From positions 1 to 64,000 of the IMG/VR virus record IMGVR_UViG_3300046385_000126: 64,000 bases of DNA, one strand, 5' to 3'. Position 1 is the first letter of the stretch. Every line of letters starts with the position of its first letter. This DNA comes from a virus. Taxonomy: Duplodnaviria > Heunggongvirae > Uroviricota > Caudoviricetes. Both the position numbers and the translations under genes were made by a program. The notes under the pieces are model-generated. The model was given only the letters and a program-made list of their open reading frames with translations, had not been told where the DNA came from and did not search any database. Below are positions 31,823-46,747 of this stretch, in pieces.

Positions 31823-32479
31823 ATGAATATTACCAAGTTTCCAGTGCTAATCTTATCAGCCCCAAGGACAGGAAGCACTCCTCTGATGCAGTACATACAA
31901 AAACACTGCAATGAGGACGTGCCTTTCTTCATGGAGCCGACTACAGGCAACTGGCAGCCGGGCGTTTCCCACTGGTCTACTGGCAAAGTAATGGATGAAT
32001 TTATGGCAACTGCCACAACTTCTCATAAATTCATCGTCAAAGACCACATCCATACGTTTTCAAAGCACGATCAACATATACAAAACCTTCTGTTATCAGA
32101 TTCAACGTTTAAAATCCGACTACAACGACGCAATTTTGCCGAACAAGTGGCGAGTCGGTACATCGTGTGGTGTAGGAATGAGTGGCACTACACGGAAAAA
32201 ACTGTTTCTACAGATTACGAACAGCCAATTCCACTGAGTGCTGACATAATTTTACGAATTTGCAGCTTCATACATGCAATAAATGAGCAGCTTCGCGAAA
32301 CAGATATAAATTTTGACCTGGATTTGTACTACGAAGATGTGTTGACATCGTGTGACTTAGACCAGTCAGGGCTTTTGGCGACTCCAAAACCTAAAAACTA
32401 CCAAGAACTACTGGATTTTATCAAATTCCAAATAGAGCACGCCTGGCCGTCTCATAGTACACGTCACCTTCGTTTATAG
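31823..32479 (+). CDS. sulfotransferase-like P-loop protein
   Basis: LILSAPRTGST resembles the 5'-PSB loop. RLQRRNFAEQVAS resembles the 3'-PB motif of PAPS-dependent sulfotransferases. Confidence 0.45.
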   Translation: MNITKFPVLILSAPRTGSTPLMQYIQKHCNEDVPFFMEPTTGNWQPGVSHWSTGKVMDEFMATATTSHKFIVKDHIHTFSKHDQHIQNLLLSDSTFKIRLQRRNFAEQVASRYIVWCRNEWHYTEKTVSTDYEQPIPLSADIILRICSFIHAINEQLRETDINFDLDLYYEDVLTSCDLDQSGLLATPKPKNYQELLDFIKFQIEHAWPSHSTRHLRL

Positions 32480-33032
32480 TTCTGAGTGAAAGTAGCTTGC
32501 GATTGCTATCACTCATCCTATTATCGAAGTCATGGTAGATGTCGACGTTGATTAGTATGCACTCACCCTGCTTAAATGTAGCTGTTTTGGCGGGAGTAAA
32601 CTTATCTGGGTCGAAACCTTTCAGTTCTCGTGTGAACGGACCGTCGTTAAACACCTCATACCCCTGGCTGACCGACTCATCATACCAGTTGGTCTTGCAT
32701 TTATCGTCATTTACTTCTAGGTAATAGTTAATACCGAACCTATTACACAGTCCATCTTTGTGTGCAACGTAGTAACTATTCGGTTTAGCGCTCAACATCC
32801 CCGTATGGCGTGTTTTTGTTTTTACTAAGCTGAACGGACTCAGTGTATGGATAAGGTATTCATCGGCAAGAGGCAGTCTTATATGGCCAACCTTCTTTGC
32901 TGATGCCTCTTCATCAAAGAACTGTTTGTTGGCCTGAGCAATGCGCTGGCCAATCTCTATGATGTCTTCCATATTTTCATGAACAATCCTCATGTAGTAA
33001 GGACTGCAGTCTTCGATGATTTCAATTTTCAT
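32421..33032 (-). CDS. hypothetical protein
   Basis: 203 aa. Its start overlaps the radical-SAM gene stop. First gene of the minus-strand accessory operon as read downstream. Confidence 0.45.
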   Translation of the reverse strand: MKIEIIEDCSPYYMRIVHENMEDIIEIGQRIAQANKQFFDEEASAKKVGHIRLPLADEYLIHTLSPFSLVKTKTRHTGMLSAKPNSYYVAHKDGLCNRFGINYYLEVNDDKCKTNWYDESVSQGYEVFNDGPFTRELKGFDPDKFTPAKTATFKQGECILINVDIYHDFDNRMSDSNRKLLSLRTINEGDVYYETARRALFGI

Positions 33033-34473
33033 TGTAGGATCTGTCTAGTAGAATATCGCGGTAGTTGTTTACAGTATCGAGCACTCTAAGTGATAACATA
33101 TCGCTTTCTGGCATTCGTCTATCATCAGCTAAACGTATGCCTAGATTCTTGATAATTGTTGTAGCAAAACCACCCACTCGGTTTCTTTTTGTTGTTTGGC
33201 ATTTGGTTGCTATATCACTACTGAACGATGCTGCCCATTTTCTGTCAAAATTTCCATTGTGCCACACGCCGTCATCCATTGTGTAGTATTTTTGCCAGTT
33301 AAGGTCAAACTCACTTTTGAATGTTTTTTTATCTGATATGTCTATGGTTAGTGGAGATATGGCAAAGCTGTCCAATGGATAATCAGGTGATAACAACCGT
33401 TCAGACCATCCAGCAATAGTGTCTGTGGTTTCATATGGCAATCCAGCAATAAAACTTCCCTCGGTCGAGCATTGAGGCATTAGAGTTTTAAACCTGTGTA
33501 ATTCGTCCTCGATCTTCTCAGGTCGCAATCCTTTGCCTACAGCCTTACTGCTTTCGTAGTTCAGAGATTCGATTCCGAAGAGCGCACCAACCAAACCAGC
33601 ATCCTTTAACATGGTATACTGTTCTGGATGTGCTCTTAGCAGCTCCAACCTAATGTATGCTGTGTACTCAAAGTTGAATGGCAGACTTTGCTTAACATCA
33701 GCCAGCATTGCTAACTTTACTGAGGTGTCGTTGTGTGTATCATCCGCAATAATGTAACTTGTAGTACCACGTTCGTAGTAATTTTTGATTAATTCATTGT
33801 AGATGGTCTGTTTATGCTTTACGTAATCGTTTTTCTTTTTCCCATTCAGCGGATAATTGCAAAACGAGCATTTGAAAATACATCCTCTTGCAATTTCGAG
33901 AACTAGACTTTCCCCATGTCTAATGTTATCATGTGCAATGTATTCGATTGCGCTTGAATTGAAATCAAACGAGGAGTTATGTGTATTGCCATCCAATACC
34001 ATTTTGTTATTGGCGTTTGTTGAATATGTGAAGAATGGATTCTTGCCATCCAACCATTTTAAATACTCAACGATAGATCTATCAGCATATCCAGTGGCCA
34101 GCACGTCAACAAGGTTATGAGATAAGGCTAGTACGTTTGCACCGCCTGCAACGATCTTTGTACTGCTGTTAATCTTTTTTATGTGTTTGAATACTATGTC
34201 CACTCTTCTCAAGTACACATTCGTGTCTGCATCACGGTATGGGTTCAGCCCATGTGTAAAGGTCGTGCTTATACCTACAACCTTTGTAGACTTTCCTACA
34301 CTTGCTGTAATAGCAGAAAGCAAATCATTAATTGGTAGTTGTGAAAAGAAGTCAACTATTTGACAGCTATAGTTGGCTGATCTGATTTCTGTTGCAAGAC
34401 GGTATGCACCAGCGGTCCTCATTCCAAATGAGGCTTCAGACAGGATCACGACGTCTGCGTTAGACTGTATCAT
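33022..34473 (-). CDS. radical SAM enzyme with an N-terminal B12-binding-like domain
   Basis: IARGCIFKCSFCNY gives the CxxxCxxC cluster motif. The first ~130 aa are Rossmann-like, as in class B radical SAM enzymes. Confidence 0.65.
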   Translation of the reverse strand: MIQSNADVVILSEASFGMRTAGAYRLATEIRSANYSCQIVDFFSQLPINDLLSAITASVGKSTKVVGISTTFTHGLNPYRDADTNVYLRRVDIVFKHIKKINSSTKIVAGGANVLALSHNLVDVLATGYADRSIVEYLKWLDGKNPFFTYSTNANNKMVLDGNTHNSSFDFNSSAIEYIAHDNIRHGESLVLEIARGCIFKCSFCNYPLNGKKKNDYVKHKQTIYNELIKNYYERGTTSYIIADDTHNDTSVKLAMLADVKQSLPFNFEYTAYIRLELLRAHPEQYTMLKDAGLVGALFGIESLNYESSKAVGKGLRPEKIEDELHRFKTLMPQCSTEGSFIAGLPYETTDTIAGWSERLLSPDYPLDSFAISPLTIDISDKKTFKSEFDLNWQKYYTMDDGVWHNGNFDRKWAASFSSDIATKCQTTKRNRVGGFATTIIKNLGIRLADDRRMPESDMLSLRVLDTVNNYRDILLDRSYNEN

Positions 34474-34511
34474 TATAATTCATACTGTGCCGGTGTTCCA
34501 GCACAGGGTAC

Positions 34512-34811
34512 TTACGCTTCTATGATAGTTTCGGTAATGTTTTTAGTAATACCACGCTCAGTAAGAAGGGGATCCTGGGCGCTCAACAGCGCGATTGTGA
34601 TTGGGCTGTCAGCCACTACCTGCCAATCAGCTTTGGTTTCCCAATCAACATTGTTGGTAATCTCAGTATCTGTGTTGACTAAGTTGAATTTGCCAATAAA
34701 ACCGCTCGCAGTAGCAATTAAATCGTTATAGTCATCAATCTGGCTCAGCCCTTCCCATGGCCATGCCACATCTGTGCTTGGTCTAATCCATTGAATTGTG
34801 CGTCTGTACAT
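34512..34811 (-). CDS. hypothetical protein
   Basis: 99 aa. Confidence 0.35.
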   Translation of the reverse strand: MYRRTIQWIRPSTDVAWPWEGLSQIDDYNDLIATASGFIGKFNLVNTDTEITNNVDWETKADWQVVADSPITIALLSAQDPLLTERGITKNITETIIEA

Positions 34812-34841
34812 AGTTGCCTCGTTTGTAAATATTGTAGCTAT

Positions 34842-35489
34842 TTATCTATTAATGAAAAACCCCGGAGTCAAGGGATCATCAACCTTTACTTGAACAGCTA
34901 ATCTACCTCGTCGGTCTCCCTGAATATTATGTACGCTATGCAACACAGTAGCTTTCATTAAATACCACGTACGGGGTTTAAAACAAGCCTCACCTAAAAA
35001 CTCACAATTGTCCCAATCGTTCAAGAACGTACTTCTGCTTCGCTCGATAGGCATTCCACGTTCTCTCCAGAATTTTGTATACTGATCTGGGTTGCTTGCT
35101 TCCAAAATGTAGATTAAAACAAAATCTCTACTCATATCCGTGTGAATAGGAGCAGTTGTACCGTCACCTTCTTTGTTCTGATATGCGACATTGACGTAAG
35201 ACCCATCATGAACCTTACATACATTCTCTGATACCCACGTATCAAACTGATCACTTAGTTTAAACTTAATATTTGGTCGACCTCTGACTATCTTACCGTC
35301 GAGATCTTTGATTTCCCTGAACCAAATACTAGGACTCAGCTCTTTATACAGCTCTCCCGTCTGTGGGACCGCGTTGTTTTCATCCAAAGCAATTGCCATA
35401 GCCTCGTCGATGAGCGATTGTGGTAGGTTTGGTACGTTCGAAAGCTCTTCAAATAAAAACACTTCTTCTGTGTCGTCTTTATAATACAT
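34842..35489 (-). CDS. hypothetical protein
   Basis: 215 aa, no recognisable motif. Sits in the accessory operon. Confidence 0.45.
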   Translation of the reverse strand: MYYKDDTEEVFLFEELSNVPNLPQSLIDEAMAIALDENNAVPQTGELYKELSPSIWFREIKDLDGKIVRGRPNIKFKLSDQFDTWVSENVCKVHDGSYVNVAYQNKEGDGTTAPIHTDMSRDFVLIYILEASNPDQYTKFWRERGMPIERSRSTFLNDWDNCEFLGEACFKPRTWYLMKATVLHSVHNIQGDRRGRLAVQVKVDDPLTPGFFINR

Positions 35490-35496
35490 ATTTTTC

Positions 35497-36687
35497 CTAT
35501 ACGTTGAGCGTAAACAATTTTGTAGTTATCATCTGAAGACCTACCATTCTACCATTAGCATCTACAGTTTTGAATTGAGGGCTAATACCGTCAGACAGAT
35601 CGTTGAGTTTATATATTAGTTTATTGTTTATGTGTTTAAACTCGTCTGATGTATACAGATAGTGAAACCACGGATGGTATATTTTGTTAAAGTTGTCTGG
35701 TTTCGCTACTTGGAACGTATTCTGGTCCCAGTTTGGATAACAGACTGAATTAACCACTTTATCAAACTCAAAAAACATTTCGAGCTTTTTATTATGAGTC
35801 GCAGTCTTCCTTACGTTTAGATCGATCAACCTTTTTAGATGAGGATTGCGTCTTACATAGAATGCAACAGCATGTGCTCTTGCAAGCGTTAGATCAGGAT
35901 AATCAGCAGAGTAGTAAAAGTTTACCCTAGAATCTACTTCTAGTTTATTATGGGAGTGTTGGTTGCCAGCAGCCATAATAGTTAGATCAGGGAAGCAAGT
36001 AGCGAACTTATCTGTGTTTGGATCGTATGTTAGGATCGGCTTGTCGATACCAAAAATATTAGCTACCCGTTTTCCCTTATTTCCATTAGCAATAGCGTTT
36101 TCCGATACGACCTCGCTAAACCCAAAGTTAGCCATTCCAAAGTTATGGTTCTGCTTATACAGCAGATCTTCGGTGATGTTAACTTGCTTTACAGTATCAA
36201 TCCAATCATCAATAACAATCTTTATCTCAGGATGATGTTCTCTTACCCAGTCGAGTTTAGGCTTAATGGAAAAATCCCATTCACTCAACATATTGGTGGC
36301 ACGTCTGTCGTTAATATCTGGTACATACTTGTTAGCATCTACCAAACGTTTGGGCCATCTCACGTAGATTTCATCTAGCTTGATATTGTTCTTTATGAAG
36401 GTTTCGAGAATTGTTGTGCTGTCAACACCACCACTAAAGTTGAGTATCAAGTAATCGTATGTTTCTCGTATCTGCCAAGCCCGAGTCTTGTACATATCTT
36501 CCAAGACGGTGCTCGGATTGTGCTTATACATCTTTAACGATGCATCCCATACCTCATCATAGTAATGGTATGTGACATTAGTCCTGCCCGCTGATGATGC
36601 ATACAACAGCGCTTGCATCTTGCTAGTGAATACCTTAGCTCCACTAGCTGTGTGTGCTTTGTAATAACCCAGCGAGCTGTTTATCAT
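35497..36687 (-). CDS. PP-loop ATP pyrophosphatase family protein (adenine-nucleotide alpha-hydrolase fold)
   Basis: LNFSGGVDSTTILE is an SGGxDS PP-loop motif. Confidence 0.55.
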   Translation of the reverse strand: MINSSLGYYKAHTASGAKVFTSKMQALLYASSAGRTNVTYHYYDEVWDASLKMYKHNPSTVLEDMYKTRAWQIRETYDYLILNFSGGVDSTTILETFIKNNIKLDEIYVRWPKRLVDANKYVPDINDRRATNMLSEWDFSIKPKLDWVREHHPEIKIVIDDWIDTVKQVNITEDLLYKQNHNFGMANFGFSEVVSENAIANGNKGKRVANIFGIDKPILTYDPNTDKFATCFPDLTIMAAGNQHSHNKLEVDSRVNFYYSADYPDLTLARAHAVAFYVRRNPHLKRLIDLNVRKTATHNKKLEMFFEFDKVVNSVCYPNWDQNTFQVAKPDNFNKIYHPWFHYLYTSDEFKHINNKLIYKLNDLSDGISPQFKTVDANGRMVGLQMITTKLFTLNV

Positions 36688-37562
36688 TTCAGCAACCGCT
36701 TGATAATATCTTTTTCTGTTTTCAGTGCGTTAGGTTTTTTAGTGTCAATGCACGACTCATAACCCATGCCAGTAAAGATCTGTGCCATCTGTTCTTCATT
36801 GAGCTTTTTGTCGATGTATGTCTTTAACTTGGTCGATAATGCCGTATTACCTACAAATAGTTGGCGACTTTTGAACCCATGAATATCAACCCCGACATCT
36901 TTGAACGTAGGGACATCAGGATACTTTTTAAGAGGTTGTGACGCTGCTAGGATTCTAAACTTACCTGAGTCGATGAGAGGTGAAACCAGTGTAACACTAT
37001 CCAAATACCACACGATTGTATCGGCAAGAAGAGCATTCATAACATCAGCAGCACCCTTGAATGGAATCTCGATTTGGTTCTTATCACCTCCTGCGATTAG
37101 TGGCGACACCATACTCTGCACCGTACCAGTTCCTGATGTGCCGTATGGGATTGTTCTGGTTGCTGATGCTGAGCGAATATCTTGAAATCGTTTGATCGGG
37201 CTATCTGCTTTCACAATAACAACACTTGGATCGGTAATTAGACACGACAAGAAAATGAAGTCGTTTTCGATATCGTATTTTGCATTGCCAAGTAGTGTAT
37301 TAGTGACGAGTGCTTGACCACTTACCAGTAGCGTCGGTTCACTCTTTTCATTTGCTACAAGAGTTGCTCCAAGAGCTCCGCCAGCTCCTGGTTTGTTCTC
37401 AACCACAAAAGTGTATTCATCGTTGGTTAGATGAGTCTGCAATTGACGTGCTAATTTGTCTGATGTTCCCCCTGCTGTGTATGGAACGACTATCTTAATG
37501 GTTTCTTTTGCGTATGTGGTAAAGCTAGCAGCTAAGAGTAGAATGGTAATTAGTTTTTTCAT
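36684..37562 (-). CDS. periplasmic substrate-binding protein, TctC/Bug-like
   Basis: Signal peptide MKKLITILLLAASFTTYA. IVVPYTAGGTSD...KPGAGGALG resembles tripartite tricarboxylate transporter binding proteins. Confidence 0.5.
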   Translation of the reverse strand: MKKLITILLLAASFTTYAKETIKIVVPYTAGGTSDKLARQLQTHLTNDEYTFVVENKPGAGGALGATLVANEKSEPTLLVSGQALVTNTLLGNAKYDIENDFIFLSCLITDPSVVIVKADSPIKRFQDIRSASATRTIPYGTSGTGTVQSMVSPLIAGGDKNQIEIPFKGAADVMNALLADTIVWYLDSVTLVSPLIDSGKFRILAASQPLKKYPDVPTFKDVGVDIHGFKSRQLFVGNTALSTKLKTYIDKKLNEEQMAQIFTGMGYESCIDTKKPNALKTEKDIIKRLLK

Positions 37563-37564
37563 GA

Positions 37565-38431
37565 TTAAGGTTTATCAGTTCGAATAAGTTGTATGAACCA
37601 GAAGGTTGGATCGATCTCCCACCACCTACGCCCTCCATAATTTGGATTGCGGCCTTCACCGTGATGGTTGTTATGCCACGCCTCTCCTAGTATTAAAGGA
37701 AAGAGCCACGGCGAATTTATACTATCATCTTTAACTGCATAATTGCGATACCCCATCTGCGGTATATGAGTAACACTTGTTTGCAATAAAAACAAATGCA
37801 AAGTGATTACGGAAGGCAGCAGCAGTAAAAACACCCACAACTGTACACTAACCATTGCCAAAAGTAAATGGGTGATCCATATGATGTATATGTAATATTT
37901 GTGTGCAAACAGCATATCTGGATCTCGTTGCAGATCGATTGTCGATCTAACACTAATGTTTACGTGTTTAAACATCCACGCCATGTAGCTGTGCCAAAAT
38001 CCATCTCTTGGGCTGTGCAAATCTTTTGGAGTATCGGCATGGCGATGGTGATACCCTCGATGTATGGAGCACCATGCAATAGGACTTCCTTGTCCTGCTA
38101 AGACGCCAAAATACAGAGTAATCAGTTTAATATGTCTGCTTACTTTATACCCTCTGTGACAAAATAATCTGTGGTAACCAGCAGCAATACCAATCATCTT
38201 TAGGCAGACATAGCCTATAAGTAATGCAACCCACCACCAAGCGGGAATAGACACCGTAAACAGCGCTATAACAGCGATAACATGGAAAGGCACTATCACC
38301 CCCCATAGTTGAGGTAACTTACGTGTATTTCTGAGTATTTGAGTTACCGATGTTTCCACTGCTTTAAAATGTCTTGATTGCCGTTGTAGATGATGTATTG
38401 CCAGCATGCGTCTTGTTGTTCGCATGGACAT
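37565..38431 (-). CDS. membrane fatty-acid-desaturase / hydroxylase-like di-iron protein
   Basis: Three His boxes (HRLFCH, HHRHADTP, HNNHH) plus multiple TM helices. Confidence 0.55.
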   Translation of the reverse strand: MSMRTTRRMLAIHHLQRQSRHFKAVETSVTQILRNTRKLPQLWGVIVPFHVIAVIALFTVSIPAWWWVALLIGYVCLKMIGIAAGYHRLFCHRGYKVSRHIKLITLYFGVLAGQGSPIAWCSIHRGYHHRHADTPKDLHSPRDGFWHSYMAWMFKHVNISVRSTIDLQRDPDMLFAHKYYIYIIWITHLLLAMVSVQLWVFLLLLPSVITLHLFLLQTSVTHIPQMGYRNYAVKDDSINSPWLFPLILGEAWHNNHHGEGRNPNYGGRRWWEIDPTFWFIQLIRTDKP

Positions 38432-38895
38432 GTCAAATACTTATATGGGTCTTTGGTAAAGTGAATGTTGTGATCATTTTTAAATGAATCGATCATCCAA
38501 TCCTGCCAGTTGCTTGTTTCGCGGCTTATGAAATATAACTCGAAGTCGGTATGTTGCTTGAGCCAGTCTATCTGACTTGCACCAGCTGCACCTACGCCCA
38601 GCGTCACTCGCCGTAAATATTCTTTACGGTCATTGGGCTTCCACAATCTATTGTATATTCGATATGTGTCATCGGGCCAGCAGCTTCGTGCAGATATACT
38701 TGAACAAACAATAGGTTGGTTATCACAATCAAATACGATTGTGCACGCTACACAATCATCCATCATTCTCTTGTTATAGTTTTTCCAAAGTCTGTGTGTT
38801 TTATCCTGGTGCTGCTTTTCGCGAAGACTGTCAAAAAGGGTATCCATTGCTGGATTGGACCCTGGAGTCCATGTTATCGATGTCACTGTTTGCAT
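38344..38895 (-). CDS. hypothetical Cys-rich protein
   Basis: 183 aa. Its 3' end overlaps the desaturase-like gene start. Confidence 0.4.
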   Translation of the reverse strand: MQTVTSITWTPGSNPAMDTLFDSLREKQHQDKTHRLWKNYNKRMMDDCVACTIVFDCDNQPIVCSSISARSCWPDDTYRIYNRLWKPNDRKEYLRRVTLGVGAAGASQIDWLKQHTDFELYFISRETSNWQDWMIDSFKNDHNIHFTKDPYKYLTCPCEQQDACWQYIIYNGNQDILKQWKHR

Positions 38896-39764
38896 AGGTT
38901 ATATTTTTTCATGAAGGCAAAAAAATCTATATCGTAACTACCATTCCATCTTTTGCCCTGCTTATGTAATTCTTGAAAGTAGGGGTGTTTGAAGATAGGT
39001 GATTGCTCGATCTGCTCATAACCATGATACTTTGGTCGCGCAATAAGATTGAAACCACTATGTCTGTTGTATATCTCTACTTTGCTAGAGTTTGAACCTT
39101 GTTTGTGGGGGCGTCTATTACTCGCCAATTCAAACATTACTGGATCTGTAAGCATTGCAGACATCATTTCAGGTCTGTATGTGTTGAAATGTGTAGTACC
39201 GTCTATTCCCTTTTTTTCAAAATATCGATACACAGCAAATTCGTGCTCATCCAGATGTATTACCCATGACAGCGATTGTTGGTCTGGCTTTATGTACATC
39301 TCACCGTCACCACATATGACAGTGCCATCGAGCTTTTCAGCAACAAATGCTGTCAACGCCCGATGATATATTTCAGACTTACATATTTGAGCAACTTCGA
39401 GCATCTTACCACTAGAGACGAAGTGGTCGAAGTCAATGTTAATTACTAAAGGTGTTAGATTTTTTGATCTACAGAAATCAAAAGCATATTTGGTATCGTA
39501 GGTATTATATCCCTGTATCATATTGATAATGACAGGAACTATCGGTATACCAGCGCTGAGAAAAACACTCAATGTGTTTTCACTATCTAAACCACCACTA
39601 TACAATAAGTGGAGCTTGCCGACCTTTAGAGAATTAATTTCCTCTGCAGCCAGCAAGCTCTCTTTGTAATAGTTTTGAAACGTAGTGGGAAGAGGGTTAA
39701 TATGGACAGTAAAATTAGAACCATGACCGCGTGGTTCATAGTAATTGCTCTTTACAAAATCCAT
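38883..39764 (-). CDS. PP-loop ATP pyrophosphatase family protein
   Basis: LLYSGGLDSENTL is an SGGxDS PP-loop. Confidence 0.55.
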   Translation of the reverse strand: MDFVKSNYYEPRGHGSNFTVHINPLPTTFQNYYKESLLAAEEINSLKVGKLHLLYSGGLDSENTLSVFLSAGIPIVPVIINMIQGYNTYDTKYAFDFCRSKNLTPLVINIDFDHFVSSGKMLEVAQICKSEIYHRALTAFVAEKLDGTVICGDGEMYIKPDQQSLSWVIHLDEHEFAVYRYFEKKGIDGTTHFNTYRPEMMSAMLTDPVMFELASNRRPHKQGSNSSKVEIYNRHSGFNLIARPKYHGYEQIEQSPIFKHPYFQELHKQGKRWNGSYDIDFFAFMKKYNLCKQ

Positions 39765-39777
39765 ATTCCCTCTTTTA

Positions 39778-40260
39778 TTATGCAGCTAATACTTCCTTCA
39801 AACGATCAGCAGCGTATGATGCAGCAAACGCTCTTGGTTTAACCATTGGGATAACGTTACACGTTCCCTTGATGTATCCAATTGCTTGCTGTACAACACA
39901 GCTTGAACCATACATTTCGTTTGGGTTAATATCTAGGTGAACTTCAACTTCCCGATCTTCCAATACATCTTTCAACTTTTGGAACAAATCAGAAACCTTA
40001 TACACTTCGTTCATCAACCGCATTGAAGGCTTGCTCTTCTTTTGATCGTAGTCAAGTTCGGTTTGCACTTCACCGAAAATCTTACAACCATGACATCCAT
40101 CGATGTGTACAACAACGGCGAGAGTATAGTCAGCATACCATTGGCCATTCAGTTTAAAGCGTACTGAATCAGCGCCAATGTAAATCTTTGTAGATGGTCC
40201 TTGTGCCTCAATGAATTCTTTAACTTCATTGATATCTAACTTTTTCATCATACTCTCCAA
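39778..40260 (-). CDS. hypothetical protein
   Basis: 160 aa. Directly downstream of tRNA-Gly on the minus strand. Confidence 0.45.
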   Translation of the reverse strand: MESMMKKLDINEVKEFIEAQGPSTKIYIGADSVRFKLNGQWYADYTLAVVVHIDGCHGCKIFGEVQTELDYDQKKSKPSMRLMNEVYKVSDLFQKLKDVLEDREVEVHLDINPNEMYGSSCVVQQAIGYIKGTCNVIPMVKPRAFAASYAADRLKEVLAA

Positions 40261-40266
40261 AATATT

Positions 40267-40340
40267 TGGTGCGGGGTAAGGGAATCGAACCCTTAACTAA
40301 ACGTTGGCAACGTCTGATTTTACCGTTAAACTAACCACGC
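40267..40340 (-). tRNA. tRNA-Gly(GCC)
   Basis: Cloverleaf with T-loop GGTTCGATTCC, anticodon loop TTGCCAA and encoded CCA. One acceptor mismatch. Sits immediately 3' of the TROVE/vWA gene. Confidence 0.6.
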
Positions 40341-40372
40341 ATGATGGCAGGGGATACGTCCCCTGCCTTTAC

Positions 40373-41791
40373 TTAGGTCAACGCATAGCGATCGACCATA
40401 ACTGCCTTAAGCATGATGCCTTGTGGAGTGAATTGTTCCGTGTTGGAAGACAAGACAGCTTTCACAACTGCTGGGCTAAACCCAGACACAAGCGCCACAC
40501 CGGACTCGTTTGCCTTTACAGGTACGTTGTCCTTAGCGTTCAGGTTCCAGAACACAATGGCAGGAACCTTGTAGCCAGCTTCTGCAAACTTACGCTTGAT
40601 CATCTGCATTGCAGAGTCATCGTACGTTGCGCACTGGTTGAATTGCATGTCTGACAGGATCAGCAACATTTCTGGCATCTCTGCTTGAGGAACGTTTGCA
40701 TCTACAGCAGTCTTCAAGATCTTTGCCATAGCCTTGTTCAGGTTAGTGGACATATTCCAAGAAGACTTAGACATTTGCTGGACCTTCTGAACAATGTTGC
40801 CCTTCAAGTGCAACAGCTCTGGATTGTCAGAGAAAGTCAGGAACGTGTCCTTGAACTTACCCTTGTTCTTATCTGCCAGGTACAAACCAAGCGAGATAGC
40901 AACATCCATACAGGTCACAGAACCAGAACCACCAGCTGGGCAGCTCATAGAGCCGGAAACATCAACCAAAGGCAGAATGTTTGCATCCCCAACGTAGTTA
41001 GGCAGAGCTTCCCATTGCTTTGCAATGTGATCCAACTCGGTCTTACCGTAGTTGTTAGACATATATCCGTTGCACATGCCTTTCAGCACGTCGTATGGAT
41101 ACACAGCCCCTGCGTTAACCTTGACGCCTGCTTCGCCCTTAACGAGCTTAGCAACGTATTCAGCAAACTTCGTACCGTGACGAGTAAACGCCTTCTTGTA
41201 ACGAGCAGATGCTACGGATGGCACATGGTTGTAGTTAATATCATCCCACTTACCAGCACACATTTGCTGTTCGACCACATTCGTCAGATTAACCAACGAC
41301 TTACGGTAGAACTTTGGCGACATGCCGAAGAAGGTACGAATCTCTGCGGCCAGAGGGCCTTGACGAGGTGTCCACTTTGCAGCCAAGCCATTCTTCTCAC
41401 GAAGAGCATCACCTAACATGGTGAAAGCCTTAGCCTTCAGATCCTTATCTTCAAAAACAAAGATGTCATCCCAGCGACCGATTTCTGGCGTCTTGGCCAG
41501 CAATGCTGCTGCAGCATCCTTATCGTGCTTTTCCAGATACTTTAGAATCTGACGGTACAACGCACGTTCACCAGATCCACCACGTGCGTCACGTGCCCAT
41601 TGAGCAATACGCAATGCAACGTCTTTGTCTTCGACGTATGCGGCTACAAAGTCCTTGGTAATATCCTTACCACGGCTTGCACCGATCTTGAAAAACAAGT
41701 CTACACATGCATCTGCAGTGGACTTGCGAGCCTTCATACCGTTAGTGGTACGAGCTTCTTGGTTCTTAACAGCTTCTACGAATGTTGACAT
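40373..41791 (-). CDS. TROVE-like + von Willebrand A protein (Ro60/Rsr-related, DUF2828-like)
   Basis: The N-terminus TTNGMKARKST...LFFKIGASRG resembles the start of a TROVE domain. A MIDAS motif VDVSGSMS lies near the C-terminal third. Confidence 0.55.
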   Translation of the reverse strand: MSTFVEAVKNQEARTTNGMKARKSTADACVDLFFKIGASRGKDITKDFVAAYVEDKDVALRIAQWARDARGGSGERALYRQILKYLEKHDKDAAAALLAKTPEIGRWDDIFVFEDKDLKAKAFTMLGDALREKNGLAAKWTPRQGPLAAEIRTFFGMSPKFYRKSLVNLTNVVEQQMCAGKWDDINYNHVPSVASARYKKAFTRHGTKFAEYVAKLVKGEAGVKVNAGAVYPYDVLKGMCNGYMSNNYGKTELDHIAKQWEALPNYVGDANILPLVDVSGSMSCPAGGSGSVTCMDVAISLGLYLADKNKGKFKDTFLTFSDNPELLHLKGNIVQKVQQMSKSSWNMSTNLNKAMAKILKTAVDANVPQAEMPEMLLILSDMQFNQCATYDDSAMQMIKRKFAEAGYKVPAIVFWNLNAKDNVPVKANESGVALVSGFSPAVVKAVLSSNTEQFTPQGIMLKAVMVDRYALT

Positions 41792-41821
41792 AATGAACTC
41801 CTTTTCAAATCAACAGGTTAA

Positions 41822-41995
41822 ACTTTTTGCTAAGCGGGTGTGCTACCATTACACTACTAGTCGGAATCGAACCGATCCACCTGCGTGGGTTTGCATTAAA
41901 GAGATTGCGGAACTTAACCTAAATTCAGCAGATTGGTTATCATTGAGGCTATCACGGCACTCAGCCAGATTCGGGCTATCTTTATGGTGATTTTT
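41822..41995 (-). ncRNA. candidate tRNA-like / Y-RNA-like noncoding RNA upstream of the TROVE/vWA gene
   Basis: On the minus strand, a T-arm-like GGTGGATCGGTTCGATTCCGACTAG is followed by a D-arm-like GTAGTGTAATGGTAGCACAC. The order is noncanonical, there is no ORF, and promoter-like and terminator-like hairpins are absent. Confidence 0.25.
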
Positions 41996-42223
41996 GTACT
42001 TGCTGTACCCAATCTAAAATCAACAGAGTAGTTTCCTTCTTTTTGTTTTACATGAGAACACGAAACTCATGTCTACCATACGTGTTAACGTATACAACCT
42101 TCAAAGCCCATACAGGCTCCAGTTGCATACCACCTTGGTAAGCCGTTACTGGAATTGCTCCCAGTTAGTTTTGTTTGCTGAACCTACTCTAAAAACTCTC
42201 GATGACTCAATTATCTGTGCTTT

Positions 42224-42748
42224 TCAGATTAGAGTCAACTGTTTAAAAATATCTTCAAGCAAAATAGGTCTAAAATCTGTTTGCTCTACGCAAGCACAGA
42301 AGTACCAAGGATCAGGGTTTACACCCCACTTGTCTTTGACCACATTTGCGTGCAAGTGACCGTGCACGTTAGCCTTGAAGCGGCCTTTGCTTTCCGTGTG
42401 AATGGGAATGTGACTAAAGATGACGTTGTTCATCACATGGTAAGCTCTAATGTCCCGAAAATGTTCTGTATATTCTTCGAGACGGAAAATATCGTGGTTA
42501 CCTTTGATCAGGACCTTGTCGCCATTCAACCTGCTAAGCGTTTTAAGTGCCTTTCGGTTAATAACAACATCACCCAAGTGATAAACCTTGTCGCCAGGAC
42601 GAACAGTTTCGTTCCAACGCTTAATCATTTCTTCATCCATTTCTTCTGGCGTATCCCAGGGACGAAGCTTTGTTCCATCATCACGAAGGAACTTACACAC
42701 ACCGGCGTGGCCAAAGTGTGTGTCGCTAACTACGAATGTCGCAGCCAT
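42224..42748 (-). CDS. calcineurin-like metallophosphoesterase
   Basis: DTHFGH, GD and GNHD motifs. Confidence 0.7.
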   Translation of the reverse strand: MAATFVVSDTHFGHAGVCKFLRDDGTKLRPWDTPEEMDEEMIKRWNETVRPGDKVYHLGDVVINRKALKTLSRLNGDKVLIKGNHDIFRLEEYTEHFRDIRAYHVMNNVIFSHIPIHTESKGRFKANVHGHLHANVVKDKWGVNPDPWYFCACVEQTDFRPILLEDIFKQLTLI

Positions 42749-42755
42749 AATAATC

Positions 42756-42947
42756 TCACTTTTTAATTAGGGGATTTTCTGTATTGTCGTACAGACTGAG
42801 TTTTTCGTTTTCTCTTACCATTGCAGTAAGAGCCTCTTCACGCTTTTTCTTTTCTAGTCGTGATTCGCCAAAGATGCGTGTGTGACCTTCATCATATGCT
42901 TTGATATTTGTTGGTCGTTGGCTATCACCTTTTCCACCATCACTCAT
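42756..42947 (-). CDS. hypothetical protein
   Basis: 63 aa, basic. Confidence 0.3.
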   Translation of the reverse strand: MSDGGKGDSQRPTNIKAYDEGHTRIFGESRLEKKKREEALTAMVRENEKLSLYDNTENPLIKK

Positions 42948-43037
42948 AATAATCTCCTGGTGGTACTAGAAGGTAACGATCCTTCCTGTCAGGCTTATGA
43001 GACCCGTGCATATCCATCTATGCTATAGTACCGTTAT

Positions 43038-43111
43038 TGGATGCGGGTGACGGATTCGAACCGCCGATGCTGCGAGCTTATGAGACTGCAGTGGTGACCT
43101 CCCTACCCGCG
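43038..43111 (-). tRNA. tRNA-like with CAU anticodon motif and initiator-like acceptor (C1·A72)
   Basis: Acceptor CGCGGGT/ACCCGCA as in bacterial tRNA-fMet. T-loop TTCGAAT and CTCATAA loop present. The D and anticodon arms do not fold canonically. Confidence 0.4.
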
Positions 43112-43118
43112 TAAATTT

Positions 43119-43192
43119 TGGTGCCCCTTGACAGAATCGAACTGCCGTAACCTGATTACAAAACAGGTGTAATACCATTATACTAAAAGGGC
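43119..43192 (-). tRNA. tRNA-Thr(UGU)
   Basis: GCCCTTT/AAGGGGC acceptor, D-loop AATGGT, anticodon loop TTTGTAA, T-loop TTCGATT, CCA encoded. Confidence 0.65.
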
Positions 43193-43201
43193 AAAATTGG
43201 C

Positions 43202-43273
43202 TGGCCAACCTGGGCTCGAACCAGGGACATTTTGATTAACAGTCAAACGCTCTACCAACTGAGCTATAGGCCA
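43202..43273 (-). tRNA. tRNA-Asn(GUU)
   Basis: D-arm GCTCAGTTGGTAGAGC, anticodon arm TTTGA-CTGTTAA-TCAAA, T-arm CCTGGTTCGAGCCCAGG. Confidence 0.7.
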
Positions 43274-43311
43274 ATATCTTGTATTATATAGTCGACCCGT
43301 TAAAAGTCAAC

Positions 43312-43386
43312 TGGTGGATGGTACTGGGATCGAACCAGTGACCGCTTCCATGTCAAGGAAGTATTCTACCGCTGAAATAACCATCC
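43312..43386 (-). tRNA. tRNA-Val(GAC)
   Basis: Acceptor GGATGGT/ACCATCC perfect. Anticodon loop TTGACAT, T-loop TTCGATC, CCA encoded. Confidence 0.7.
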
Positions 43387-43390
43387 ATTT

Positions 43391-43465
43391 TGGTGCCCAC
43401 GAAAGGACTCGAACCTTCACTCCGTCGATTATGAGTCGACCGCTTCACCTTTAAGCTACCTGGGC
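43391..43465 (-). tRNA. tRNA with CAU anticodon (elongator Met or Ile2/lysidine type)
   Basis: D-arm GCTTAAAGGTGAAGC, anticodon arm GTCGA-CTCATAA-TCGAC, T-loop TTCGAGT. Confidence 0.65.
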
Positions 43466-43470
43466 ATCTC

Positions 43471-43548
43471 TGGTGCGGCCAATGGGATTCGAACCCATAC
43501 TGTACAGATTTTAAGTCTGTTGCCTCCTACCTATTGCGCTATGGCCGC
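43471..43548 (-). tRNA. tRNA-Leu(UAA), short-variable-arm type with atypical D-arm
   Basis: Acceptor GCGGCCA/TGGCCGC perfect, A73. Anticodon arm ACAGA-CTTAAAA-TCTGT. Only a 5-nt variable loop. D region is GCGCAATAGGTAGGAGGC. Confidence 0.55.
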
Positions 43549-43555
43549 AAAACCA

Positions 43556-43650
43556 TATTAAAACACACTGCTCACTATCTTTATGTACACTATTACATAG
43601 TGGGTTGCATATTGTTCGTGTGTGCCATGCAACTAGCGCCTCACAGTGTG
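43556..43650. other. long hairpin (17-bp stem, ~60-nt loop) in an inter-tRNA spacer
   Basis: ATATTAAAACACACTG pairs with CAGTGTGTTTTAATAT. Confidence 0.5.
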
Positions 43651-43658
43651 TTTTAATA

Positions 43659-43735
43659 TGGCGCGCCAAGAGGGATTCGAACCCCCGACATGCGGTGTAG
43701 AAGACCGCTGTTCTATCCAGCTGAACTATAGGCGC
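43659..43735 (-). tRNA. tRNA-Arg(UCU)
   Basis: D-arm GTTCAGCTGGATAGAAC, anticodon arm GCGGT-CTTCTAC-ACCGC, T-loop TTCGAAT. Confidence 0.7.
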
Positions 43736-43738
43736 AAA

Positions 43739-43813
43739 TTGGTGCTCTCGTCAAGAATCGAACTTGAGTTACATCCGTACCAAGGATGTGTAATGCCATT
43801 ATACTACAAGAGC
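43739..43813 (-). tRNA. tRNA-Thr(GGU)
   Basis: Acceptor GCTCTTG/CGAGAGC, anticodon arm CATCC-TTGGTAC-GGATG, T-loop TTCGATT. Confidence 0.7.
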
Positions 43814-43821
43814 ATTTATAT

Positions 43822-43899
43822 TGGTACCCACAGCGAGATTCGAACTCGCACTGTACAGATTTTGAATCTGTTGCCTCCTACCTATTGCGCTATGTGGGC
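43822..43899 (-). tRNA. tRNA-Leu(CAA), short-variable-arm type with atypical D-arm
   Basis: Same body as 43471-43548 (TAGCGCAATAGGTAGGAGGCA). Anticodon arm ACAGA-TTCAAAA-TCTGT. A73. Confidence 0.55.
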
Positions 43900-43925
43900 A
43901 TTATTAAACAGGATACGTTTTTTAC

Positions 43926-44075
43926 TCTGCTCTACCAACTGAGCTACCCCTCCACTAAACTTATTCATCGAACTCCTCAGACGGTTACTCTAAGTCATAA
44001 CGCTCTTCAAATCGTAGACCAATACGACAGGAATAAGTTTAGTGGAGGGGGATGGAATTGAACCACCGACACGAG
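43926..44075 (-). ncRNA. circularly permuted tRNA-like unit (T-arm + 3' acceptor, 64-nt insert, 5' acceptor + D-arm)
   Basis: On the minus strand GGTGGTTCAATTCCATC then CCCCTCCA, a perfect 20-bp inverted repeat (43947-43966 / 44031-44050), then GGAGGGGTAGCTCAGTTGGTAGAGC. No anticodon arm in canonical position. Confidence 0.3.
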
Positions 44076-44117
44076 GCTTTCAATGCATTTTATGTTGCTG
44101 AATGTATCCTAAAACTT

Positions 44118-44207
44118 TGGCGGTGCGACTGAGACTCGAACTCAGAACCCAGCTTTCGCTAAGCGACAGATTAGCAATCTGCTCTAATACCATTATAGGA
44201 CCGCACC
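44118..44207 (-). tRNA. tRNA-Ser(GCU), type II
   Basis: Acceptor GGTGCGG/TCGCACC, anticodon arm GCAGA-TTGCTAA-TCTGT, long variable hairpin, T-loop TTCGAGT. Confidence 0.7.
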
Positions 44208-44214
44208 AATATTC

Positions 44215-44304
44215 TGGCGGTGTGTGGAGGAGTCGAACCCCGGCCAGCATTCGCCAACCGTCCGCTTTCCAGGCGGATGCTAGAACCATCTAGCTGCACA
44301 CACC
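44215..44304 (-). tRNA. tRNA-Ser(GGA), type II
   Basis: Anticodon arm TCCGC-CTGGAAA-GCGGA, long variable arm, T-loop TTCGACT. Confidence 0.65.
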
Positions 44305-44329
44305 AATAACAGGTTCAATTTTTTACGTG

Positions 44330-44400
44330 CTACCACTACACCAACGCGAAGACCAACTCGCGTCCGGGATTCGAACCCGGCCCCTCTTTTTTACAGAAAG
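44330..44400 (-). ncRNA. permuted tRNA-like unit (T-arm, acceptor-like hairpin, D-arm)
   Basis: Minus strand reads CCGGGTTCGAATCCCGG, ACGCGAG-TTGGTC-TTCGCGT, TGGTGTAGTGGTAGCAC. No CCA. Confidence 0.3.
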
Positions 44401-44439
44401 ATTATTTTTGATTGCTGAAATGAACCTAATGGTCTAATT

Positions 44440-44520
44440 TAACAGGATGCTGTGTTATCGCCGGGAATCGAACCCCTATTACAAACACGGTCCCCAACTG
44501 GACGGCCTGGCAAAAGTGGC
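44440..44520 (-). ncRNA. degenerate tRNA-like element (D-arm and T-arm present, no anticodon arm)
   Basis: GTCCAGTTGGGGAC D-arm-like and GGGGTTCGATTCCC T-arm-like segments sit only ~14 nt apart. Confidence 0.25.
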
Positions 44521-44540
44521 GCCATAAGTTGTTTGCTGTA

Positions 44541-44600
44541 TTCATCCTAAAAATGGCGGGACATTTAAAATTGCAGAATAAATTCTTTACAGAATTATAT
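44541..44600 (-). ncRNA. tRNA-acceptor-like minihelix with CCA
   Basis: GGGACA...TGTCCC + GCCA ends. Internal AATTCT-GTAA-AGAATT GNRA-capped hairpin. Confidence 0.2.
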
Positions 44601-44615
44601 TTTTGTCCCATAACT

Positions 44616-44707
44616 TGGCGGAAAGCAGAGGAGTCGAACCCCATCCCCGTTAGGAGAACCTGGTTTTCAAGGCCAGTCGCAGGACCAACCCCGCTGCATT
44701 ACTTTCC
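44616..44707 (-). tRNA. tRNA-Ser(UGA), type II
   Basis: Acceptor GGAAAGT/GCTTTCC, anticodon loop CTTGAAA, long variable arm, T-loop TTCGACT, CCA. Confidence 0.65.
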
Positions 44708-44715
44708 ATTATTCT

Positions 44716-44979
44716 TTAGACATCCTCATATGTTGCAAGGATGTGTTGCTCTTCAATGATGAAGAACGGAACTGCACCGAACTTTGAAGGTTGGGCTTTG
44801 CTCCAATCGATATACACATAGTCTCCGATCTTAACATCAGCTACATCTGGTCCTGTGGCAATCACTTTACCACGTGGGCTTTCTGATTCGTGCCCTTCAA
44901 CAATAATACCAGATGCAGTAGCATTTGCTGGTTTAATCCGAGCAACTGCGACTTTATTTCCAATAGGAACTAGTGCCAT
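44716..44979 (-). CDS. GroES-like co-chaperonin (gp31-type)
   Basis: LVPIGNKVAVARIKP...SGIIVEGHESESPRGKVIATG...VKIGDYVYID follows the GroES/Cpn10 pattern. Embedded in the tRNA array. Confidence 0.7.
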   Translation of the reverse strand: MALVPIGNKVAVARIKPANATASGIIVEGHESESPRGKVIATGPDVADVKIGDYVYIDWSKAQPSKFGAVPFFIIEEQHILATYEDV

Positions 44980-44995
44980 AACAAACCTTTAAAAT

Positions 44996-45069: not shown

Positions 45070-45076
45070 ATAAAAA

Positions 45077-45152: not shown

Positions 45153-45155
45153 ATT

Positions 45156-45859: not shown

Positions 45860-45872
45860 AATAACTCCGTTA

Positions 45873-46741: not shown

Positions 46742-46747
46742 ACAATT

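Follow-up and report, generated by a model that had tools for sequence, protein, structure and literature searches.

A phage gene cassette centred on a PP-loop enzyme and a TctC-type binding protein: a candidate small-molecule or lipid pathway

Why would a T4-like phage carry a periplasmic binding protein, a membrane desaturase, a radical S-adenosylmethionine (SAM) enzyme and two PP-loop ATPases in one gene cluster? This question is raised by positions 31823-40260 of a 64,000-nucleotide stretch of viral DNA (hereafter, the window; positions 1 to 64,000 of the IMG/VR record IMGVR_UViG_3300046385_000126), which belongs to a 169,610-bp metagenomic contig. Genes for gp32, the tail tube, the baseplate and the tail were found in the window, in agreement with the T4-like character proposed by an initial annotation of the DNA. 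That annotation described ten mostly minus-strand genes in the region. Their content was essentially as named; the region holds eleven open reading frames (ORFs), one on the plus strand (g1) and ten head-to-tail on the minus strand (g2 to g11), the last of which is a backbone gene.

We tentatively propose, at somewhat less than even confidence, that the cluster is an elaborate copy of a conserved and undescribed phage cassette encoding a "bind, adenylate, tailor" pathway for a small molecule or a lipid. The invariant core of this cassette is a stand-alone asparagine-synthetase-type PP-loop enzyme (g6, termed PPa), which in most loci abuts a TctC/Bug-type protein with a signal peptide (g7 in the window). 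The link to a binding protein is the strongest functional clue. Related loci are referred to below by numbers beginning with L.

The PP-loop enzymes and the binding protein

Six motifs had been quoted in the initial annotation, and all of them were found in place: CIFKCSFC in g3 (residue 198), SGGVDS in g6 (residue 85), SGGLDS in g10 (residue 56), and HRLFCH, HHRH and HNNHH in g8 (residues 87, 128 and 253). In both g6 and g10, the SGGxDS pyrophosphate-binding loop follows the first strand of a Rossmann-like fold, as is typical of the PP-loop superfamily. When g6, g10 and 51 family members were scanned singly, no Pfam, NCBIfam or PHROG match was obtained at E<0.005. The curated PP-loop hidden Markov models (HMMs; Asn_synthase, NAD_synthase, QueC, ATP_bind_3, PAPS_reduct and tRNA_Me_trans, among others) were unmatched by g6 and g10, and phmmer and profile searches of the PDB with g6 yielded no relevant match. 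Hence, the naming of g6 rests on structure prediction, all sequence-only routes having failed.

The predicted fold of g6 was closest to the synthetase domain of asparagine synthetase and beta-lactam synthetase. CarA and beta-lactam synthetase were among the top structural matches, and small-molecule amidoligases gave the best matches with the longer aligned span. The C-terminal helical subdomain of the synthetase-domain fold was also present in the model. Compared with the synthetase domains of class II glutamine amidotransferases (AsnB, beta-lactam synthetase, CarA and TsnB9), the identity of g6 was only 8-10%. In addition, g6 has no N-terminal Ntn-type glutaminase domain, as it starts with MINSSLGYYK and matches no GATase model of Pfam. 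Where AsnB-type enzymes have that domain, g6 has only about 60 unrelated residues, forming a small beta-beta-alpha-beta-alpha unit ahead of the PP-loop domain. Unlike AsnB-type enzymes, g6 is also unmatched by the asparagine-synthase models of Pfam and NCBIfam, and its family, a separate one with some 1,860 clusters, is nearly confined to phage-like contigs. The BFVD entries of the g6 fold were named only "Uncharacterized protein [uncultured Caudovirales phage]". Comparison of the g10 and g6 families by hhalign (probability 97.2%, E=4e-11, 216 columns) indicated that g10 (PPb) is a distant paralogue of g6.

The co-occurrence of PP-loop and radical SAM enzymes had led the initial annotation to point to 7-deazaguanine and thio-modification pathways. 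By this account, the cluster would provide phage DNA or tRNAs with a base carrying a 7-deazaguanine-like, thio- or amido-modification. Like the QueC/QueD/QueE and PP-loop thiolation systems, the cassette does combine a PP-loop ATPase with a radical SAM enzyme in one cluster and occurs in phages. The operon also lies beside an array of 31 tRNA genes with a tmRNA, near RNaseH-like and DUF2828 genes (the latter TROVE-related in its L004 homologue), and weak QueC-like and RNA ligase/kinase genes were present within 10 kb in L006 and L008. However, the analogy failed at the level of the enzymes, as neither QueC nor thiolase was matched. The QueC models of Pfam and NCBIfam were unmatched by g6 and g10, that of PADLOC gave E=0.009 over 35 residues only, and no model of TilS, ThiI, MnmA, TtcA or DndC was significantly matched. 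The g6 family contains zero conserved Cys that could serve an Fe-S/Zn site or a persulfide, and g3, with about 480 residues and probably of B12 type, is not QueE-like. No QueD, QueE, FolE, TGT or DpdA gene was found in the cluster. Moreover, the amidoligases that matched g6 best act on small molecules; it is hard to place a secreted binding protein, a membrane-bound acyl desaturase or an ABM-fold protein in a base-modification route; and most related loci are not adjacent to tRNA genes and have varying neighbours. Nucleic-acid modification is thus very improbable.

The neighbouring gene product g7 matched Pfam TctC (PF03401; E=8e-24, 85.1 bits, cut-off 27). Its PDB matches were Bug27 (E=1.5e-25), a terephthalate-binding protein, BugD and others. 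The N-terminus, MKKLITILLLAASFTTYA/KE, is signal-peptide-like, and the AGGTSD and PGAGG loops were found. Of 72 distinct TctC homologues, 89% had an N-terminal hydrophobic segment, compared with 0-5% in soluble enzyme families. These matches indicated that g7 is a bona fide binding protein of the tripartite tricarboxylate transporter (TTT) type with a predicted signal peptide. As in Bug27, BugD, BugE and the terephthalate- and adipate-binding proteins, a signal peptide and glycine-rich loops are present in g7, which is 25-32% identical to solved Bug proteins. Unlike the genes of TTT operons, g7 is virus-encoded, has no TctA/TctB companion in the window, and appears translationally coupled to the gene of a cytoplasmic PP-loop enzyme. 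TTT systems and tripartite ATP-independent periplasmic (TRAP) systems are both dedicated to organic acids (PMC5812351), in keeping with the carboxyl adenylation expected of the partner enzyme.

A binding protein and a desaturase had been considered odd for a virus. Both are indeed unusual, with precedents: cyanophage PstS is a known phage-encoded periplasmic binding protein, and cyanophages also encode desaturases. The latter, which act on lipids, have been published (PMC5776448).

The closest solved relative of g7, Bug27, binds quinolinate and nicotinate (PMC11452294). The cassette could accordingly be pictured as a supply line for NAD, in which a Bug27-like importer of nicotinate or quinolinate and a PP-loop amidase resembling NAD or nicotinamide mononucleotide (NMN) synthetase feed a phage salvage pathway. 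The same phage does encode such a salvage pair at 12116-15481 on the plus strand, namely nicotinamide phosphoribosyltransferase (NAMPT; 466 aa, PHROG E=7e-158) and a NadR-like NMN adenylyltransferase/Nudix protein (339 aa). However, Bug27 was only slightly preferred over other Bug proteins (1e-25 vs 1e-20), g6 is more AsnB-like than NadE-like, and all of the tailoring enzymes would be left unexplained. We keep NAD supply only as a minor, scarcely probable alternative because no NAMPT or NadR homologue was found within 10 kb of g6 homologues in any other locus.

Recurrence of the cassette in phages and bacteria

A word-indexed protein search returned 91 full-length homologues of g6, none of which was named or had a Pfam domain. 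In 1.84 billion representatives, the family profile detected 1,858 clusters at 50% identity, and 931 of these reached E<=1e-30. The few named members are all "hypothetical protein" except one, labelled "archaellin" in a JGI record; this label is spurious, as it was backed by none of the searches run. At least 486 stretches in IMG/VR encode relatives of g6. The carrier contigs measure between 5 and 353 kb; T4-like phages (L007, with gp32 and gp59) and jumbo phages (L006, L024 and L076) are among them. By contrast, tblastn of 50,697 deposited phage records revealed no homologue of g6 or g3, and the region was unmatched in DNA and protein searches of the same records, so that there is no cultured reference. 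The initial annotation could name no phage module that the cluster matched. This holds for isolate phages and for annotated modules; the cluster is not unique, however, and recurs in many uncultured phage contigs. Homologues of its genes do lie side by side elsewhere, but none of them is annotated. A search of the literature on phage-borne components likewise found no description of a cassette combining a PP-loop enzyme with a binding protein.

To describe the neighbourhoods, ORFs were called in 84 non-redundant g6 loci, clustered and reassigned with family HMMs. The sample for co-occurrence comprised the best 80 of at least 486 IMG/VR hits and a few metagenome loci, near-duplicates included. 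Of about 83 loci, 58-63 contained a TctC-type gene, which was separated from the g6-type gene by a median of 13 bp and shared its strand in 87% of cases. The g10-type paralogue was found in 39-42 loci (37 of the 64 long ones) and SCD-type desaturases in 35-40 loci, with 72-75 copies in total. The family of g4, termed c4, which has an ABM fold, occurred in 36 loci; its genes mostly adjoin the g6-type gene, are often duplicated and often flank a cytochrome P450 gene. Homologues of the radical SAM protein g3 were present in 16-18 related loci, and at least one family of double-stranded-beta-helix (DSBH) oxygenases was represented in 48 of the 64 loci measuring 15 kb or more.

These results revealed two tiers: a near-universal pair of PPa and binding protein, and an extended tier that adds PPb, desaturase(s), oxygenases and ABM proteins, with or without GNAT-like proteins and, in a minority of loci, a P450 or a radical SAM enzyme. 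The window belongs to the extended tier. Three phages with related backbones (L029, L030 and L032) have only TctC and PPa. Their backbone genes are 68-72% identical to those of the window and the neighbours are the same (RNaseH-like, DUF2828 and metallophosphoesterase genes), yet their PPa is only 36% identical. This difference suggests that the cassette diversifies or is exchanged faster than the backbone.

Do the members of the extended tier belong together? An accessory-gene island offers a different account, in which only the TctC-PP-loop pair is a functional unit and the desaturase, the Asp/Arg-hydroxylase-like oxygenases, a type common in aquatic T4-like phages, and the radical SAM enzyme are independent genes gathered in the same hyperplastic region. 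The minimal pair amid the same RNaseH-like and DUF2828 neighbours in L029, L030 and L032 is consistent with this account, as is the low regional GC, which would be expected of a mosaic accessory stretch. Aspartyl beta-hydroxylases are reported to be core genes of pelagimyophages, in which stearoyl-CoA desaturase is occasional (PMC7029224), and the cyanophage desaturases were proposed to act alone, with a role in membrane fluidity (PMC5776448). The cultured pelagimyophage Mosig (Pelagibacter phage, MT647606; L088, 50696-69325) also groups such genes. Its 15-kb accessory block beside the tail-fibre genes encodes a desaturase, two Asp_Arg_Hydrox proteins, TauD, a peroxiredoxin, an FMN reductase, several MoaA-like radical SAM proteins, a carbamoyltransferase and aminotransferases. 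No g6 homologue was detected in Mosig, and the block is devoid of the PP-loop/TctC core; it is possibly a distant functional cousin of the cassette.

The arrangement of the genes argues against a mere island. In the window, the desaturase gene lies between both PP-loop genes, 2 nt from the TctC gene, in an overlapping operon. Across the related loci, 61 of 72 desaturase copies had a module gene within two genes, and 59 of 72 had module genes on both sides. Among the g6 loci of at least 15 kb, PPb, desaturase, ABM, oxygenases and two GNAT-like families co-varied with odds ratios of 16-39 (21 for PPb with the desaturase and 39 for PPb with the ABM family) and Fisher p values of 1e-6 to 1e-8, which overstate the evidence because the loci are phylogenetically non-independent and several are near-duplicates. 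Furthermore, TctC was found in 2 and the SCD-type desaturase in 3 of the 50,697 phage records, and some of these are bacterial DNA. Since both genes are otherwise almost absent from phage records, their association with g6 is far beyond chance. Considering both sides, we regard the island as unlikely, at about a quarter of our belief.

One desaturase match among these records, in "Acinetobacter phage MD-2021a", was discarded, as the record appears to be bacterial chromosome filed as phage. The corresponding entries (CAKLQH020000002.1 and CAKLQF020000003.1; L089, 254 kb) carry trpB, trpC, btuB, baeSR and acyl-CoA dehydrogenase genes.

One genome each for 185,579 prokaryotic species contained only 11 g6 loci, mostly on short phage-like contigs of metagenome-assembled genomes (MAGs). 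A distinct set was found in MAGs of Bdellovibrionales and Bacteriovoracaceae, with 26-30% identity to g6 and on long contigs (L099:8201-16026 and L096:7287-13217). In a 338-kb contig of a Bdellovibrionales MAG, the gene order is an AsnB-type glutaminase protein (GATase_7), the g6 homologue, an Opp-type binding protein (SBP_bac_5), OppB-like and OppC-like permeases and a B12-radical-SAM-like gene. In a second such MAG locus, the g6 homologue is flanked by genes for S-adenosylhomocysteine hydrolase and a 723-aa protein with a spermine-synthase domain. These loci may be cellular relatives of the phage module.

The binding-protein partner is not always of the TctC type. In two MAG contigs (L100 and L091), the g6 homologue abuts a homologue of the TRAP-type binding protein DctP, and a DctP homologue lies within a few genes of the g6 homologue in four phage loci. 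The loci bearing DctP are L057, L071, L082, L086, L091 and L100 (for example, L100:8051-9034; Pfam DctP 8.6e-56).

Accompanying enzymes and gene order

Of the gene calls made in the initial annotation, those of the radical SAM enzyme, the TctC-type binding protein and the desaturase held, and that of the sulfotransferase stayed below threshold. The desaturase call was examined by comparison with solved structures. g8 aligned with human/mouse SCD1 in the PDB (4zyo; E=4e-16, residues 38-281), with HRLFCH, HRGYHHRH and HNNHH in SCD1 register, and matched the NCBIfam DesA family at 5e-11. g8 itself was below the threshold of Pfam FA_desaturase; a homologue with 55% identity in L008 does carry this domain. 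Long hydrophobic blocks span residues 39-86 and 180-220. These data indicated that g8 is a homologue of the SCD1/DesC-type membrane acyl desaturases. Like SCD1 and the DesC-DesA delta-9 enzymes, it has a DPHxxxxGFxxSHxGW-like stretch and transmembrane blocks, and like the cyanophage lipid desaturases (PMC5776448) it is phage-encoded. Unlike either of them, it is shorter (about 245-288 aa), lies in a multi-enzyme operon and has a conserved partner, g9. Where g8 starts is uncertain: read from its first ATG, the ORF overlaps g9 by 88 nt, the alternatives ATG 38407 and GTG 38359 reduce the overlap, and the JGI start at 38293 would remove residues aligned with SCD1.

No library scanned gave a match for g9. 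Homologues were found in three other loci, adjoining the desaturase gene or one gene from it in L059 and L047 and at the contig end in L016. The invariant features of the family are CWP, YRIxNRLWK and two more Cys. Elsewhere the slot of g9 is held by the GNAT-like families c16 and c18. A kinship of g9 to these families was rejected (hhalign probability <1%).

Neither g2 nor g5 matched Pfam directly. g2 contains HKD at residue 91 and a distal His, reading ...IYHDFDN, and g5 contains HTD at residue 116 and a distal His, reading ...VLHSVHN. By hhalign, the g2 family was linked to family Ox5 with 95.6% probability and to the g5 family with 90%, and a chain led from the g5 family to Ox5 (97.9%), from Ox5 to Ox17 (98.5%) and from Ox17 to Ox8 (96.3%). 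Ox8 and Ox19 exceed the cut-off of Pfam Asp_Arg_Hydrox (PF05118). By this transitive route, with links of 90-98%, g2 and g5 are probable Asp/Arg-hydroxylase-like 2-oxoglutarate (2OG)/Fe(II) oxygenases. A g2 homologue in L034 lies between PP-loop genes, and a 45%-identical g5 homologue in L007 lies between two TctC genes.

Desaturases and hydroxylases of these kinds could also serve envelope remodelling. A glycan, or lipid A or an amino-lipid, would be amidated, for example at uronic-acid or amino-acid head groups, by an AsnB-like, WbpS-type enzyme and its acyl chains hydroxylated and desaturated in the manner of LpxO/OlsC, and the altered host surface would lead to superinfection exclusion or phosphorus sparing. 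The Asp_Arg_Hydrox family includes the acyl-chain hydroxylases LpxO and OlsC, such families are present in the module, and the desaturase is of SCD type. The marginal GNAT-like families c16 and c18 adjoin desaturases in related loci, and in L009, L095 and L098 the g6 homologues have sugar epimerase and DegT aminotransferase genes nearby. Lipopolysaccharide genes are also common in the hypervariable regions of aquatic myophages (PMC7029224). However, such sugar genes occur in few loci only, Pfam and NCBIfam scans of the cluster in the window revealed no glycosyltransferase, nucleotide-sugar enzyme, acyltransferase or flippase, and TTT binding proteins are not known to take part in building the envelope. 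We consider this explanation improbable, and it overlaps the lipid version of the pathway proposed here, from which sequence alone separates it poorly.

g3 carries a cysteine motif of the CxxxCxxC type and exceeded the cut-off of Pfam Radical_SAM (PF04055; E=1.1e-9, 39.1 bits, cut-off 29.5), whereas the B12-binding domain of Pfam gave E=0.04 only. Its NCBIfam matches were partial and all far under the membership cut-offs: PhpK (1e-20), TIGR04072 (2.5e-16), HpnJ and BzaD. Every top family in this list is B12-dependent. The lipid-biosynthesis B12/radical SAM family TIGR04072 aligned with residues 61-354 and BzaD with residues 22-323, so that the N-terminal region was included. These matches indicated that g3 is a radical SAM enzyme outside any named family and probably of the cobalamin-dependent class B, in line with the B12-type label given initially.

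g4 was predicted to form an ABM domain of about 100 residues with the ferredoxin-like beta-alpha-beta-beta-alpha-beta order. A homologue search with g4 only had found two proteins, and it was repeated with a family profile built from the loci. The predicted fold resembles LsrG, ActVA-Orf6 and SnoaB, all of which act on small molecules. The initial annotation had also proposed a small-molecule modification pathway, and the ABM (g4) and 2OG-oxygenase-like (g2 and g5) assignments strengthened this proposal.

The same proteins could instead modify a peptide or protein, either in a pathway for ribosomally synthesized and post-translationally modified peptides (RiPPs) or on a host or virion protein. 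An AsnB-like enzyme of lasso-cyclase or amidotransferase type would then act on a ribosomal peptide together with Asp/Asn hydroxylases, a B12-radical-SAM C-methyltransferase, P450 and a sulfotransferase. Lasso-peptide cyclases and RiPP C-terminal amidotransferases are AsnB homologues, and Asp_Arg_Hydrox enzymes classically hydroxylate Asp/Asn of proteins. In addition, g3 weakly matched TIGR03975 ("RiPP maturation radical SAM C-methyltransferase", 4e-8), and the small c4 genes, multi-copy beside P450 genes, are precursor-like. However, c4 genes were rejected as RiPP precursors, as the model of g4 is a compact ABM domain with the C-terminal strand within the sheet, not a leader-core precursor. 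The largest gap in the operon, 38 nt, is too small for a short precursor gene; no leader peptidase, RiPP recognition element or exporter was found; and the binding protein and the desaturase would be without a role. Peptide modification is therefore quite improbable.

The last candidate enzyme, g1, matched Pfam Sulfotransfer_3 (PF13469) with E=0.003 and 18.4 bits, below the cut-off of 27 and over the N-terminal 70 residues only. A PRTGST motif is present at residue 14 and a conserved RRxxxxQxAS stretch lies downstream; a profile search of the PDB gave no match. In L036, L037 and L051, homologues with 36-38% identity border the module, there too on the opposite strand. The sulfotransferase call for g1 is suggestive only. 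The gene had been described as divergent; it is convergent with g2, and their 3' ends overlap by 59 nt.

The features of the region are listed in Table 1. The cassette consists of the nine minus-strand genes g2 to g10 and the convergent g1. The gaps between the minus-strand genes are -88 to +38 nt, with overlaps at five junctions; because the gaps are this small and five junctions overlap, g2 to g10 probably form one translationally coupled operon running from about 39764 to 32421. g11 was assigned to the backbone because it is 70-72% identical to genes of phages with a related backbone. The GC content of the cluster is 0.39-0.42, compared with 0.45-0.51 in both flanks. The scan for promoters and terminators performed no better than on shuffled sequence, and an Rfam scan of the operon's flanks detected no riboswitch or other element. 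No known component of anti-phage defence or counter-defence was recognised with PADLOC, which returned only a generic radical SAM match of g3 (PDC-M51A, 1e-8), all else having E>=0.008.

Table 1 Genes at positions 31823-40260 of the window
Gene	Positions	Strand	Length (aa)	Assignment
g1	31823-32479	+	218	Possible PAPS-type sulfotransferase, sub-threshold
g2	32421-33032	-	203	Divergent DSBH (2OG/Fe-type) oxygenase-like, probable
g3	33022-34473	-	483	Radical SAM, probably cobalamin-dependent class B (methylase-type)
g4	34512-34811	-	99	Predicted ABM / dimeric alpha-beta-barrel fold, family c4
g5	34842-35489	-	215	Divergent Asp/Arg-hydroxylase-like (DSBH) oxygenase, probable
g6 (PPa)	35497-36687	-	396	Stand-alone asparagine-synthetase-type PP-loop ATP pyrophosphatase by predicted fold; module-defining gene
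g7	36684-37562	-	292	TctC/Bug-type (TTT) solute-binding protein, predicted secreted
g8	37565-38431	-	at most 288	Predicted integral-membrane SCD1/DesC-type (delta-9-like) acyl desaturase
g9	38344-38895	-	183	Desaturase-accompanying protein without library match
g10 (PPb)	38883-39764	-	293	Second PP-loop enzyme, predicted distant g6 paralogue
g11	39778-40260	-		RNaseH_like (PF04308), phage backbone gene outside the cassette

The initial annotation held that the cluster interrupts the phage core. Instead, it occupies an accessory stretch away from the core structural and replication genes, bordered by small plus-strand genes on one side and by 31 tRNA genes with a tmRNA on the other. This tRNA block (40267-50697, minus strand) is unusually full for a phage of about 170 kb. 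The tag peptide of the tmRNA is ANDEKFALAA, which we take to be like the betaproteobacterial ANDERFALAA-type tags and which might hint at the host. One tRNA call (47747-47822; tRNA-???) has a four-base anticodon, atac, and may be either a pseudogene or a tRNA resembling frameshift suppressors. Between the cassette and the array (39778-41791, minus strand) lie the RNaseH_like gene (PF04308), a lone tRNA-Gly gene and a DUF2828/DUF7788 gene, a combination that suggests an RNA-handling neighbourhood. The DUF2828/DUF7788 counterpart in L004 has weak Pfam matches to TROVE and vWA_Ro60, and homologues of the DUF2828 protein are present in 710 phage records.

A candidate pathway and its meaning

Here, we propose the following order of events for the cassette. 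g7 would be exported, capture a carboxylate in the periplasm and hand it to an assumed host TctAB permease, on which import would depend, as no multi-span transporter is encoded in the window. Once in the cytoplasm, the carboxyl group would be adenylated by g6 and g10 at the expense of ATP and joined to ammonia or an amine, yielding an amide; carboxyl adenylation followed by amidation is the chemistry of the synthetase domains of AsnB, beta-lactam synthetase and carbapenam synthetase. Then g8 (with g9), g2, g5, g4, g3 and perhaps g1 would desaturate, hydroxylate, rearrange, methylate and sulfate one scaffold. The molecule is most likely acyl-bearing because the desaturase, which acts on long acyl chains, is the only enzyme with a confident substrate class. 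Hydroxylases of the LpxO/OlsC type, P450s and lipid-type B12 radical SAM enzymes can act on acyl chains as well. Hence, the favoured substrate would be an acyl-bearing carboxylate, either a metabolite or signal derived from a fatty acid or an envelope lipid resembling amino-lipids. Any specific substrate is proposed with much less confidence than the general pathway.

The cassette matches no named system, being neither a queuosine/archaeosine, lipid A, carbapenem or lsr system nor a complete TTT operon. In the carbapenem and thienamycin pathways, the CarA/ThnM synthetase acts with the 2OG oxygenase CarC and the cobalamin radical SAM methylases ThnK/L/P. By analogy, the cassette would unite an AsnB-like PP-loop synthetase with probable oxygenase(s) of the 2OG type and a radical SAM enzyme that is probably of class B. 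Unlike those clusters, it has no CarB/ThnE crotonase or other carbapenem gene, and its probable oxygenases are Asp/Arg-hydroxylase-like rather than CarC-like. The lsr operon, which serves the uptake and processing of autoinducer AI-2, encodes the binding protein LsrB, the transporter LsrACD, the kinase LsrK and the ABM-fold isomerase LsrG. It differs from the cassette in having another binding protein, and a kinase where the cassette has an adenylating enzyme.

Several observations weigh against the proposed pathway. No ORF of the 64-kb window has more than three hydrophobic segments or resembles TctA, and no TctA or TctB was seen in the gene lists of related loci. The DctP-like partners start at the mature domain and have no signal peptide, so that the binding-protein partner may sometimes work inside the cell. 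Phage accessory regions gather unrelated genes, and the linkage of the desaturase could be partly non-functional; the p values for co-occurrence are inflated, as described above. Finally, the assignments of g2 and g5 are transitive, and the call of g1 is sub-threshold.

We further consider it possible, although doubtful, that the cassette represents a widespread and unrecognised virus-encoded small-molecule metabolism of large aquatic phages, both T4-like and jumbo, in which a secreted binding protein re-aims a TTT-like permease of the host and the imported compound is amidated by dedicated PP-loop ligases, desaturated, hydroxylated and methylated. The phage would thereby make or destroy a lipid-like metabolite, for example an amino-lipid or a fatty-acid-derived signal.

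Each protein of the cassette is a divergent member of a known superfamily; the central enzyme family and the overall logic are undescribed. The usual auxiliary genes of phages are single enzymes borrowed from the central metabolism of the host, from which this multi-enzyme cassette, resembling a biosynthetic gene cluster, differs. The defining g6 family is large, diverse, nearly confined to phage-like contigs, and invisible to Pfam, NCBIfam and PHROGs. The proposal is directly testable, as the proteins are small and soluble except for the desaturase, and the binding protein offers a simple route to the ligand. If the genes do form one pathway, many uncultured freshwater and marine phages would produce, take up or degrade a particular small molecule or lipid while infecting their hosts. 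This would be a new kind of metabolic interaction between virus and host, one that uses the phage's own secreted binding protein. It would also provide a function for about 1,860 protein clusters now called "hypothetical", and would explain the frequency of Asp/Arg-hydroxylase-like oxygenases and desaturases in aquatic myophages.

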